From Eledone cirrhosa (taxonomy: Eukaryota), in the NCBI GenBank assembly GCA_964016885.1, contig OZ024741.1, positions 171,802,001-171,866,000 on the forward strand: DNA of 64,000 nt, in the 5' to 3' direction. Shown here one piece after another: positions 5,061 through 58,594 of the stretch. The notes under the pieces are model-generated. The model worked only from the letters and a program-made list of their open reading frames with translations, had not been told where the DNA came from and did not search any database. Each line of letters begins with the position of its first letter. The stretch's first letter is position 1. Made by a program: the position numbers and the translations under genes.

Positions 5061-5408
5061 AGTTTTAATATAGAAGAGATTCTACAGGACTAGAACTGTT
5101 TCATTTGTGAGAAATCATCAGGAATCTGACTGTCCAAGTAAATATGGTGGTATTTATATATTTTCTGGTGGTAGGAGAGAGTGAGGAGTGGGGTGACCAC
5201 CACCCATCCCACTCCCCACTCTCTCCTACCACCAGAAAATATATAAATACCACCATATTTACTTGGACAGTCAGATTCCTGATGATTTCTCACAAATGAA
5301 ACAGTTCTAGTCCTGTAGAATCTCTTCTATATTAAAACTTTTACACTCTGCTATGTATTGAGTACCTTACTTACTTTGGTTACCTCCAATTCAACCCTGA
5401 ATAACTTA
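5061..5408 (+). mobile_element. Fold-back element family PB (Penelope-like pLTR with hammerhead)
   Basis: Arms 5061-5195 and 5205-5339 plus tail to about 5408, (TA)n on both sides; relatives at 34211-34360 and 59556-59621. Confidence 0.85.
5273..5323 (+). ncRNA. Type I hammerhead ribozyme (mirror copy 5077-5127 -)
   Basis: agattc CTGATGA tttctcacaaat GAAA cag ttctagtc ctg TA gaatct; stem I and stem III pair, GUA site, stem II weak. Confidence 0.8.
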
Positions 5409-5476
5409 TATATATATAAGTTATTTCGACGGCTAATTCTGGACTACATTAGTTATATATATATATATATATATAT

Positions 5477-5680
5477 AACGAAGGAAATGTGGTAAGGAAC
5501 CAGGTGGACCATAACGCACCAAAGTACTCAATACTTAGGGTAGTAGAGTGGGTAATAGGAACGAGTAGGACCCCGACGGCTGAGCTCAAGCCATTTCGAC
5601 GGCTAATTCTGGACTAATGTAGTCCAGAATTAGCCGTCGAAATGGCTTCAGCTCAGCCGTCGGGGTCCTACTCGTTCCTA
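5477..5680 (-). mobile_element. Fold-back element family PC with partial hammerhead
   Basis: Arms about 5556-5616 and 5620-5680; GAAA-(c/t)ggc-tgagctca-gccg-TC half core; flanked by (TA)n; copies at 24470-24676 and 57225-57325. Confidence 0.82.
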
Positions 5681-5999
5681 TATATATATATATATATATA
5701 TATATATGTATATGTGTGTGTATACTCTCAGGTAAAATGTAACCCCATACAGCATGGTGAAGTCATTATCGATTACACTGGCAAATTCACCTTGATTGAT
5801 CTTAGACATCCTGTGGGATGAATAACAAAACCCATCAAAAGAGTGGAGGAAATAATGAGTGTCAACAGCCATCCAAGATTGTGTATCATCGTCATCATCA
5901 TCATTATCATTTTAAGTCCGCTTTCCCCTGCTTGCAAGGGTGGGACGGGTCCTATTCAGCACAGCATCTCTCCACATGTCATGGTCTCTATCGAAAACG

Positions 6000-6531
6000 A
6001 TGTGTGAGTGTTCAACAGATGGTATGTATATAATTGTGATTGAATGTATTAAGGAAAATGTAAAATGTCTGGGTTTAGATATGAATCAATGGGAAAAGCA
6101 ATCTTCTGATCATAATGCATGGGGAAAGACAATTAAATCAGGGTGTCAACTATTGGATGAAATGAAAAAAGCAAAGGCAGCTCTAAAATGGGCACTAAGA
6201 AAGGCTGAGTGAACAGAGCTTGAAAATGTTGATTATTGGAATTGCTATTTCTGTCACTCTAAAGCTGGTTTTGTAAACTATATGGAAACACATGAACAGA
6301 CAATGACACAGGCAGATTATGTTGCAAATCTACATCCACCTCCAGATGTGACTACTTGTCAAATTTTTAACAAGATATGTAACACAACCCTTGAATTAAA
6401 ATGCCATATGAAGATTCTTCAACATGACGTTCCACATCCTGATCCAATAAACCCAGTATACACATTAGTATACATCTGTTACTTGTGCCAAAGAGCTCCT
6501 AAATCAATAGCCAGATTGAAAAGTCATATCA
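6000..6531 (+). pseudogene. Degenerate RTE-type LINE 3' region with C2H2-like fingers
   Basis: IKENVKCLGLDMNQWEKQSSDHNAW followed by decayed CxxC...H motifs; stops and frameshifts. Confidence 0.5.
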
Positions 6532-6729
6532 TATTGAGTACCTTACTTACTTTGGTTACCTCCAATTCAACCCTGAATAACTTATATATATATAAGTTAT
6601 TTCGACGGCTAATTCTGGACTACATTAGTTATATATATATATATATATATATAACGAAGGAAATGTGGTAAGGAACCAGGTGGACCATAACGCACCAAAG
6701 TACTCAATACTTAGGGTAGTAGAGTGGGT
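6532..6729 (+). repeat. 198-bp direct duplicate of 5356-5553
   Basis: Appears identical by eye, including the (TA)n tracts. Confidence 0.92.
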
Positions 6730-7231
6730 GAAAATGTGTAGTAAAGATTGAGATGATGTTGAGATGGTTAACATTTGACAAGATGAAGTATATTAGGTAT
6801 AGGATTACCCAAGATGTAGTACTGGTTAATTACTACACTGGATATGGTTGACGTACGGTGAGAGGTTACTCTACGAGTTATGGAAGAATTGTTGAAGAAA
6901 CTTAGTTCCTGATCCTTCTGTATTCCGGAGTGTATATAAAGAATGAATAATAACAGGTAGACATCAAAAAAGGTAATTTATTCCGTGTGCTTACAAATGT
7001 TTCCACAGCCTAGTTATGCTATGTGCAAATTTACAAGTATTTGCAGAACTCAAATATCCAATGCTGTGATCACTGTTTCCTCAGAGCAGAATCATATATT
7101 TGAGTTCTGCAAATACTTGTAAATTTGCACATAGCATAACTAGGCTGTAGTACCACCGTGGAAACATTTGTAAGCACACGGAATAAATTACCTTTTTTGA
7201 TGTCTACCTGTTATCATTCATTCTTTATATA
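6730..7231 (-). mobile_element. Fold-back element family PD with long-stem-II hammerhead
   Basis: Arms 6933-7057 and 7096-7231, tail to the left, (TA)n at the right end. Confidence 0.8.
6988..7088 (-). ncRNA. Hammerhead ribozyme with extended stem II
   Basis: tgct CTGAGGA aacagtgat cacagc...gctgtg GAAA catttg TA agca. Confidence 0.62.
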
Positions 7232-7250
7232 TATATATATATATATATAT

Positions 7251-55548: not shown

Positions 55549-55687
55549 CATGCATAAATACATATATATATATATATATATATATATATATATATATATA
55601 TATATATATATATATATATATATATATATATATATAAAATAAAATAAAATAAATAAGTCAAATGTTTAAAATTTGGCTTCGTTTATT

Positions 55688-55742
55688 ACTGCTATATATA
55701 TTTCGGGGACAGCCATCTTTGGCTGTGACCTCTTCAGGCAGT
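55688..55742 (-). ncRNA. Hammerhead ribozyme
   Basis: actgc CTGAAGA gg tc acagcca aaga tggctgt cc cc GAAA tatata TA gcagt. Confidence 0.82.
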
Positions 55743-55845
55743 CAGAATTATATATATATCAGATAAAATACGATGATGCATGATATACCCTGACATGGTA
55801 GATGGTTAAGATTCAGCCATATATATATATATATATATATATATA

Positions 55846-57211
55846 TATCATAAAACATGTCTATAGAATCAATCAGATATTAAAATATATACTATTTCTT
55901 CCTCTAATCAGCATAATTATCCATATACATAATCAAATCCAGCAAGCTTTAAGAATAAATTTTCTAACGGGGAAATCTCCGACAAATAATTGATTGCAGC
56001 CAGTTCGCGATAACTCCGTTCCATTATTTATCAAACAGTTCGGCAGCATGCAGAATCCGATCAAATACATCGTCAACCGCACGTAATTAGTAGTAAAATT
56101 AAACTTAGAAGAAATGCGCACATACCGTAATTAATCTCTACCATGGTTTCTTCCTTGTTTAGGACATCCAAATAATATGGGCTTGCCCTGAGTCAGGTTA
56201 TCATCAGGAGATAAACTCAGAAATAGACATTTAATTTCTCAGACCGACCCCGCCAAATTTAGATTCAAAAATGGCTAAGATCGCTATGTAGCTGTGTACC
56301 AACCAGAGAGAAAGCGTGTGATTGGTCGCTTACGGCGGGTAGGCATGCTGCTAGAAAGCGCAGCCATATATCGCCAAATTTAATCTCAACCGAAATGATA
56401 TAATGCTCTAATTTTTTGATTTTAACTTATTAATTCTTCATTGAGCTTAAAAGTGAACAGTTGCAACACATATATGTATCCTTGATTTAATTTAATTTAA
56501 TTTTATGTATGTGATAACCTCTATATTTAATAATCTCCCTATCGGTTGAGATTAAATTTGGCGATATATGGCTGCGCTTTCTAGCAGCATGCCTACCCGC
56601 CGTAAGCGACCAATCACACGCTTTCTCTCTGGCTGGTACACAGCTACATAGCGATCTTAGCCATTTTTTAATCTAAATTTGGCGGGGGTCGGTCTGAGAA
56701 ATTAAATGTCTATTTCTGAGTTTATCTCCTGATGATAACCTGACTCAGGGCAAGCCCATATTATTTGGATGTCCTAAACAAGGAAGAAACCATGGTAGAG
56801 ATTAATTACGGTATGTGCGCATTTCTTCTAAGTTTAATTTTACTACTAATTACGTGCGGTTGACGATATGTTTGATCGGATTCTGCATGCTGCCGAAGTG
56901 TTTGATAAATAATGGAACGGAGTTAACGCGAACTGGCTGCGATCAATTATTTGTCGGAGATTTCCCCGATGGAAAATTTTACTCTTAAAGCTTGCTGGAT
57001 TTGATTATGTATATGGTTAATTATGCTGATTAGAGGAAGAAATAATATATATTTTAATATCTGATTGATTCTATAGACATGTTTTATGATATAATGCTCT
57101 GATTTTTTGATTTTAACTTATTAATTCTTCATTGAGCTTAAAAGTGAACAGTTGCAACACATATATGTATCCTTGATTTAATTTAATTTAATTTTATGTA
57201 TGTGATAACCT
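55846..57211 (+). mobile_element. Large fold-back and partial-tandem Penelope-like insertion, family PK
   Basis: About 550-bp arms 55846-56393 and 56542-57091; about 125-bp tail repeated directly at 56395-56520 and 57086-57211; TA runs at both ends. Confidence 0.9.
56724..56802 (+). ncRNA. Hammerhead ribozyme (mirror copy 56134-56212 -)
   Basis: atctc CTGATGA [50-nt stem II region] GAAA ccatgg TA gagat. Confidence 0.75.
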
Positions 57212-57224
57212 ATATATATATATA

Positions 57225-57325
57225 TAGGAACCAGTAAGACCCCGGCAGCTGAGCTCTACTACCTCAAGTATTGAGTACTTTGGTGCGTTATGGTCCACCT
57301 GGTTCCTTACCACATTTCCTTCGTT
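57225..57325 (+). mobile_element. Deleted family PC copy
   Basis: Inversion junction at GAGCTC, then the family PC tail into (TA)n. Confidence 0.75.
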
Positions 57326-58065
57326 ATATATATATATATATATATATATATATATATATATATATACATACATACATACATACATACATACATACATACA
57401 TACATACATACATACATACATACATACATACACACATACATACATATATATATATATATATATATATATATATATATATATATATATATATATATACACA
57501 CAAACACATACACACAAACTGATAGACACACGTTTTCACACACACCATATCATATTACATATACGATTCAAAACGTTGAACTCATCACAAAATTCCCCAG
57601 TCAACCTCAAACTAGTTTCTTTCTGTCAAAGATAAATACCAAATATAAAAATGCTGAGACCAACAGTTTGTTACTACAGATATGCTGTTCATCCTTTACA
57701 ATTGACAGTTCTATCATTTCACTAGAAATATCACGTCTGATTCCAATCTAAAGGAAAAGTCAAACATGATTATAAACCATTGCCAAACATCATTTGCTGC
57801 TCTTATTGGTTGATATATATACATATATCTGTTTGTGTGTATGTATGTGTGTATGTATTATGTATGTATGTATGTGTGTGTGTATGTATGTATGTATTTA
57901 TGTATGTATGTATGTGTGTATGTATGTATGTGTGTATGTATGTATGTATGTATGTATGCATGCATGTATGTAAATATATATATATATATATATATATATA
58001 AATGGAAAAAATAAAATTTCATTTCTCACTCTTAGTACGGCTGATACTTAAATGTAAGTATGTAT

Positions 58066-58594
58066 ACGTACATACATATATGTATACAGACGTACATTAG
58101 TATGTATATACATACATACATGCACACATATATACATGTACGTATGGGTTTACCGAACATTTATTATAACGCTCGGTTTGTTTGTAAACAAACAGCCCGA
58201 ATTAAGCCGTACAGTGTTCGGCAACCATCGTTGCTCTTTTGTTCAACACTGACAAAGAAACGATGAACTAGTTTCTAGCATATTAGCTGTCATCAGTACC
58301 GTATGGGTTTACCAAACATTTATTATAATGGTCGGTTTGTTTGTAAACAAAAAACCCGATGGTTGCCGAAAACTGTACGGCTAATAATTCGGGCTGTTTC
58401 TTTACAAACAAACCGAGCATTATAATAAATGTTCGGTAAACACATACGTACATGTATATATGTGTGCATGTATGTATGTATATACATACTACTGTACGTC
58501 TGTATACATATATGTATGTATACAGACGTACAGTAGTATGTATATACATATATACATGTACGTATGAGTTTACTGAACATTTATTTTAATGCTT
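58066..58594 (-). mobile_element. Multiply inverted fold-back element family PL with decayed hammerhead (58261-58301)
   Basis: Arms about 58069-58230 and 58357-58520; cggta CTGATGA cagctaatatgcta GAAA ctag TT catcg. Confidence 0.75.

Follow-up and report, generated by a model that had tools for sequence, protein, structure and literature searches.

The window analysed here, 64,000 nucleotides (nt) from the 3.0-Gb genome of Eledone cirrhosa (GenBank assembly GCA_964016885.1, contig OZ024741.1, positions 171,802,001 to 171,866,000 of the forward strand), has 33% G+C, many TA microsatellites and, in a family-based scan, 26 hammerhead ribozyme 3' halves, plus one unassigned motif at 7.0k. We consider it probable that these derive from type I hammerheads of Penelope-like elements (PLEs) and of one tandem retrozyme that dimerise through a palindromic stem III, and that the families have become incompatible with one another by divergence of both stem III and stem I.

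A sequence-only reading of the same stretch had listed palindromes at twelve sites, directly 3' of GAA and before the cleavage base, and every one of these strings is indeed found there. As hammerheads, however, the sites divide: the CUGANGA and GAAA core with an NUH cleavage site, as expected of type I hammerheads, is retained at nine of the twelve (5.3k, 25.5k, 26.6k, 35.3k, 53.5k, 54.5k, 55.7k, 56.8k and 58.3k), whereas at 5.6k, 7.5k and 24.5k only a 5'-truncated half is present at an inversion junction, without the CTGANGA core. Other copies of these coreless families do possess it (21/36 in the 7.5k family; in the 5.6k family, six clustered copies have it). The proposal built on the list, that each family has its own palindrome serving as a dimerisation barcode, is contradicted by the observed sharing of palindromes between families; what our models predict instead is a specificity carried by two helices and arising as a by-product.

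Self-complementarity of stem III

A random sample of the genome, 1.39 Mb taken as 139 stretches, each 10 kb long and starting from a round-number position, was searched with a descriptor requiring the core, stem I and stem II; in short stems III it demanded the closing A-U pair but no palindromy. It matched 118 times in the sample versus once in the reversed stretches (116 versus 1 for a second version), and stems I and II close the junction with covariation support, as in family A, where stem I reads AGATTC/GAATCT in 18 copies and AGCTTC/GAAGCT in 11. Clustering with stem III masked yielded 33 families, each represented by two or more independent copies. Of these families 32 were kept, and 26 singletons (18 of them imperfect) stayed outside the family counts. 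The cluster that was dropped, AAGTAT, is an AT-rich satellite of ~550 bp at a single locus (L177:1253-5065 onward) and a probable false positive. Inverted halves of one insertion were counted separately, families B and E were mined from other loci, and the genome queries for families D and F included the palindrome.

The modal stem III is a perfect palindrome in 21 of the 32 families, complete with G-U pairs in three, odd-length with one central base in three and imperfect in five; allowing G-U or one central base, 27/32 families are self-complementary. Among the 24 families with even stems of 6-10 nt, the inner tetramer, that is, the four bases left unpaired in a monomer loop, is palindromic in 19, to be compared with a mean of 3.9 and a maximum of 12 in 20000 rounds of a half-swap null. 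Within families the modal stem is mostly well kept, with shares of 53/80 in family A, 27/36 in C, 32/35 in D, 16/22 in E, 29/31 in H, 16/18 in I, 28/31 in J and 33/35 in K, and the hexamer of family B is modal in 78/96. One abundant family carries a non-palindromic stem, AGAACT in 18/21 copies with AGGACT and AGGTCT as variants, and might dimerise through tandem purine (A-A or G-A) mismatches.

The monomer helix III is predicted at +0.4 to +6.0 kcal/mol, or with an impossible loop, in 30 of the 32 families, and stable monomer hairpins are predicted for family A (CTAG, -1.4 kcal/mol) and family B (TGAGCTCA, -4.8 kcal/mol). The combination expected of dimer-dependent hammerheads, an unstable helix III with self-complementary 15.1-16.1 segments, is thus predicted for most families here, with A, B and AGAACT among the exceptions. 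The sequence-only reading had anticipated much of this: palindromy is retained while the sequence varies, which is already published, and stem III is predicted to be unstable outside the CTAG and TGAGCTCA families. As a stable helix III is, by these predictions, out of reach for a short stem in the monomer, the short-stem families are likely to cleave as dimers.

The geometry would be as follows. Two copies lying on the same strand and within one transcript would, by virtue of their short self-complementary stems III, join into a double hammerhead, which would excise a unit-length RNA. Judging from the topology, pairing of the 15.1-16.1 segments would put each core beside the U16.1-H17 of its partner, and the 5' stem I strand of each core would pair with the 3' strand of the other, cutting the partner's site. 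Because the cores would adjoin the partner's site, stem I and stem III would both have to match, and a heterodimer would need three cross-helices. Stem I would thus be swapped as well, a point missed earlier, and its predicted discrimination is no poorer than that of stem III. For two adjacent units of family K, the double hammerhead, computed as a nested fold with the spacer unfolded, is predicted at -19.3 kcal/mol versus -7.7 kcal/mol for two monomers.

Monomer cleavage, maybe assisted by a protein, could alternatively be the working mode of some or many families, with the palindrome as a helper, a relic or the mere look of a tiny stem, although we regard this as unlikely. It would suit families A and B, which have predicted stable hairpins and make up 71 of the 287 hammerhead halves in the random sample, as well as the non-palindromic AGAACT family (26 halves), and it has precedents in most invertebrate retrozyme hammerheads, which cut efficiently as monomers (PMC7229834, PMC7761336), and in the protein that assists a lizard PLE hammerhead (PMC11167929). 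It does not, however, account for loop positions that are unpairable in the monomer and yet palindromic far above chance, nor for the prediction that none of the 30 other families has a stable monomer helix III.

Partner choice between families

On modal sequences, 15 of the 496 family pairs are predicted to come within 2 kcal/mol of the homodimers at stem III, six at stem I and one at both, the latter being family G with its sister. Heterodimers are predicted to lose a median of 11 kcal/mol at stem III, compared with 15.6 kcal/mol at stem I, and both cross stems I reach at least 4 bp in only 6/496 pairs, in five of which the palindrome is the predicted discriminator. Family K contigs from other runs vary at a paired position of stem I, and no stem III variant in them reaches 10%. 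For family restriction to arise, mere divergence accompanied by compensation suffices. We infer that, with self-complementarity under selection, the palindromes would change by way of compatible intermediates such as G-U, so that mutual incompatibility would be a by-product, with stem I bearing at least an equal share of the specificity. Cleavage restricted to the own family is accordingly plausible in these models, most likely as such a by-product; that the incompatibility spares host read-through transcripts is speculation.

Palindromes recur between families genome-wide, ATATATAT in three, ACAATTGT in three and ACGATCGT in two, and the window alone holds three ATATATAT families (33.8k, 53.5k and 55.7k). 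Sharing between G and I is inherited (z 14.5), and G and the 33.8k family have no detectable relationship (z 0.1). The 14 families with perfect eight-mer palindromes form seven identical pairs, where 1.4 are expected from uniform draws, 1.9 from the genome composition and 5.5 under a column shuffle (P of seven or fewer = 0.86); neither one palindrome per family nor a shortage of collisions is seen, and there is no sign of over-dispersion. Stem III also varies within families: in family G, ATATATAT (22/48 copies) and ATATGTAT (21/48) are cross-compatible through G-U, and family F, queried with the palindrome and hence tallied with a bias towards it, has ACAATTGT in 9, ACGATCGT in 9, ACAATCGT in 5 and ACGATTGT in 4 of 33 rows. 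This mixture of ACGATCGT, ACAATTGT and both intermediates could come from CpG decay or from subfamilies.

A stronger role for selection is conceivable, in which stem I and stem III form a two-part key kept orthogonal among dozens of families, so that an element's own tandem transcripts would alone be cut and ~200 halves per Mb, mostly with other-family neighbours, would leave host transcripts intact; the palindrome alone would then suffice in the ATATATAT/ATGCGCAT sisters, and family B would use a kissing loop, GAGCTC, akin to the dimerisation initiation site (DIS) of HIV-1. We consider this improbable. In the three family B subfamilies with GAGCTC, none of the 6 palindrome columns varies, compared with 3/3 in the flanking loop and 15/102 downstream, which by itself is not significant (~0.4).

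Selection for palindromes that differ between families, which would confine the dimerisation and processing of an element to partners of its own kind, appears very improbable to us. Sharing above the random expectation, with no deficit under the column shuffle, three ATATATAT families in one window, and intermediates (ATATGTAT, ATGTGTAT, ATGTGCAT) that resemble drift with compensation all speak against such a barcode, and stem I alone excludes 490/496 pairs, leaving little for the palindrome to do. Its best case is a sister trio with one and the same stem I (TTTTAT/ATAAAA) differing only in the palindrome (ATATATAT or ATATGTAT versus ATGCGCAT), so that the palindrome by itself would shut out ATGCGCAT, at predicted penalties of 12.2 and 6.2 kcal/mol versus ATATATAT and ATATGTAT, respectively, in families whose relatedness is weak to moderate (z 6.3 and 3.4). 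The 28 distinct modal stems among 33 families agree with a barcode as well, and opportunities for mis-pairing exist, as same-strand neighbours within 5 kb in the random sample belong to another family in 94 cases and to the same one in 33, of which 22 come from the array-forming family K. In HIV-1, discordant DIS lowers co-packaging 2.3-fold (PMC3605237).

Several observations weigh against dimerisation with incompatibility by divergence. The sister trio is one of them. The families are related, so the 24 (or 32) are not independent trials, and the energies are nearest-neighbour estimates on modal sequences that ignore tertiary contacts and proteins. An own PLE protein is tied only to some families, A, B, C, E, F, G, I and J being assigned by layout. 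Among Xenopus retrozymes, 8/9 dimers stayed uncut in vitro and 1/9 was cut (bioRxiv 10.64898/2026.07.22.740005), and for the lizard PLE, hammerhead mutants insert normally in vitro, cleavage required the PLE protein and no RNA-seq ends fall at the cut site (PMC11167929). That the fold serves some other purpose (dimerising the RNA or binding a protein in reverse transcription) or is a passenger, with cleavage mattering little in vivo, would fit the unimpaired insertion of catalytic mutants, Naiad PLEs that multiply without canonical hammerheads (PMC8557442) and the weak in vitro activity even of dimers (PMC4209133), but is highly improbable given a catalytic core retained across 32 families, compensatory U3/A8 variant included.

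Host elements and known hammerhead systems

On sequence grounds, family H is a Penelope-like element of the form pLTR-ORF-pLTR, an ORF (open reading frame) between two pLTRs (pseudo-long terminal repeats). Its ORF encodes a reverse transcriptase (RT; PF00078, E 1e-11) and a GIY-YIG domain (PF01541, E 2.5e-6), the hammerhead lies about 370-400 nt downstream, and three same-strand pairs ~3.1 kb apart occur among 43 matches; RT followed by a C-terminal GIY-YIG upstream of the hammerhead, as in endonuclease-containing (EN+) PLEs, is thus recognised by Pfam. The family D ORF has a CxCx5C linker and the element ends in TA repeats, as described for Hydra PLEs (PMC8557442); Pfam gave no match on three family D fragments, and the family's PLE link consists of these motifs. 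GIY-YIG-type ORFs also stand upstream of the AGAACT, ATGCGCAT and ACCTCTGGT families at one or few loci, as at L038, ~200 nt upstream of an AGAACT-family hammerhead. The layout is that of PLEs too, with pLTR direct repeats, 5' truncation, an inverted 5' copy and TA-repeat targets; inverted 5'-truncated copies are described for PLEs in PMC8557442.

Family K is organised like a retrozyme: its tandem units are non-coding, measure a few hundred bp and each carry a single type I hammerhead (23 units spaced 418-428 bp at locus L192), and no PLE-protein match was found upstream at 35 copies. It resembles the non-LTR (long terminal repeat) retrozymes (PMC7229834, Cervera and de la Pena 2020; PMC7761336) in its ~422-bp tandem units, one type I hammerhead per unit, 6-bp stem I and 4-bp stem II, with a basal U-U mismatch in the modal copy. 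It differs in a unit slightly above the 170-400 nt range (PMC7229834), in the solitary copy of the window and in being known as DNA; a sequencing-run search for family K gave no RNA run among those listed. Retrozymes have been derived from pLTRs by Li et al. (bioRxiv 10.64898/2026.07.22.740005). A second retrozyme-like tandem, with a period of 311 bp and stem III ACGCGT, occurs at a single locus (L232:8750-9683), outside the family counts, and same-strand pairs of family J ~690 bp apart (G000:C28:54852585-54853377 and similar) may represent a non-autonomous unit.

The closest known system is that of the PLE pLTR hammerheads, for which palindromic 15.2-16.2 positions and loop 3, a U3/A8 variant and extreme variability of the families within each genome have been described (PMC4209133, Cervera and De la Pena 2014), the Schistosoma motif there being inactive as a monomer and of low activity as a dimer. 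The E. cirrhosa families share with these the type I topology, a stem I of 4-8 bp, the extra base between positions 9 and 10.1, the palindromic 15.2-16.2 and loop 3, the U3/A8 variant and many divergent families per genome; their copies are likewise mostly solitary or inverted, and dimer cleavage has been proposed or shown in known motifs. They differ in the much longer stem II domains (45-115 nt) and the 8-10-nt palindromes of many families, and in two abundant families whose monomer stems of 4-6 bp enclose a palindromic loop. At least three families have the U3/A8 core, namely E, B and that with ACGGCTGT (window 26566-26603; L204, L208), and the long stem II domains are seen, for instance, at window 25459-25579 and 56724-56802 and at L152 and L277. 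The palindromic short stem III and the dimer model are also stated in PMC6765202, citing Lunse et al. 2017 (PMC5785218). The results and discussion of PMC4209133 do not treat homo- versus heterodimer specificity, and a search outside which most subscription papers lie, and also Lunse et al. 2017, which may treat palindrome covariation or partner specificity, turned up no paper that puts forward a family barcode in PLE hammerheads.

Double hammerheads are covered in PMC6466107, and Forster et al. 1988 is cited there and in PMC4209133. An unstable stem III would be rescued by two palindromic segments that pair with each other, as in the avocado sunblotch viroid and the satellite of newts; there, however, one family exists per replicon, whereas dozens coexist here. 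The DIS of HIV-1, a 6-nt loop palindrome, offers a works-like analogy only. Its loop has the same 2+6+1 layout as the 9-nt loop of family B. Palindrome-based choice of the RNA partner by the DIS is documented (PMC3605237, PMC7357161), yet the DIS is not homologous, is non-catalytic and needs flanking purines, where the flanks in family B are mostly pyrimidines, and discrimination is measured in the DIS but predicted here.

Hammerhead copies in the window

Rfam at gathering thresholds gave no hammerhead match in the window, and among the weak matches listed (150 of 374) none was a hammerhead, most being microRNA models on microsatellites. The long stem II domains, which go beyond the descriptors examined, may be the reason for these misses. 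Family A is represented by an inverted type I copy with stem III ACAGTTCTAGTCCTGT (5077..5127, minus strand), by a copy on the plus strand (5273..5323) with a 6-bp stem I, core at 5279 and a 4-bp stem III closing an 8-nt loop with CTAG, a predicted monomer folder, and by a decayed copy (59554..59605, plus). Two substitutions would turn the stem III at 5301-5316 into a perfect palindrome of 16 nt, and it could form a hairpin or an extended duplex. Family B forms two pairs of inverted, coreless 3' halves (5576..5660 and 24490..24577) with a GAGCTC loop in stem III; at 5576-5594 and 24490-24508, a 5-bp stem carries a 9-nt loop of 2+6+1 layout that is kissing-loop-like. At 6988..7088 (minus) lies the unassigned single hammerhead-like motif, with non-palindromic stem III ACATTTGT and new relative to the earlier list, followed by two inverted 3' halves of family C (7378..7533; stem III ACATATGT), whose inversion junction removed the core.

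Family D contributes a complete hammerhead (25459..25579, minus) with a stem II domain of 92 nt and stem III ACACGTGT, at the end of the PLE with Hydra-type motifs, and an inverted half at 25682-25689. The family E hammerhead (26566..26603, minus) has the U3/A8 variant core (TTGAAAA) and stem III ACCGGT. The third ATATATAT family of the window, with its own stem I, lies at 33749..33827 (plus) and was not in the earlier list. In the family F copy (35212..35267, plus) stem II is eroded, as it is at 5.3k, and stem III, polymorphic within the family, reads ACAATTGT; erosion affects several window copies. The abundant non-palindromic family, also absent from the earlier list, has a copy at 52460..52504 (plus) with C3 changed and AGGACT in place of the modal AGAACT.

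Two complete, inverted hammerheads of family G (53322..53534) share stem III ATATATAT and a stem I of the TTTTAT type, and a decayed copy with A15.1 changed lies at 60842..60907 (plus). The minimal family H hammerhead (54476..54510, minus; AATT) sits in the pLTR of the element with RT and GIY-YIG, of whose protein the last 48 codons, the GIY-YIG end, are found at 54875..55018 (minus; tblastn, 100% identity). Family I (55688..55742, minus) combines stem III ATATATAT with stem I ACTGC/GCAGT, while family J (56134..56802) has hammerheads at 56134-56212 (minus) and 56724-56802 (plus) in 315-nt inverted arms, with stem III ACCATGGT. In the family K copy (58260..58302, minus; ACTAGT) the first stem I pair is broken. 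Aside from these, two tandem copies of 288 bp, 99% alike, at 51678-52245 hold a hammerhead core on neither strand, and short arrays with periods of 48-49 bp occur at 4190-4283, 47023-47234 and 48259-48357, the 47k and 48k units being similar.

No same-strand pair of core-bearing copies of one family lies within 5 kb in the window, and the window copies are therefore probably inert remnants; most are truncated, inverted or solitary and hence likely inert.

The motifs, and the logic of a palindrome for dimerisation, are an already known feature of PLEs, and in this respect the finding is ordinary. What the genome offers beyond it is a natural panel, at least 32 dimer-type hammerheads strong and by prediction nearly orthogonal, with families that share stem III only (G and I), families that share stem I only (G and the ATGCGCAT family) and one that is non-palindromic. 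Such a panel would make homo- versus heterodimer specificity, and the role of PLE hammerheads, easy to probe.

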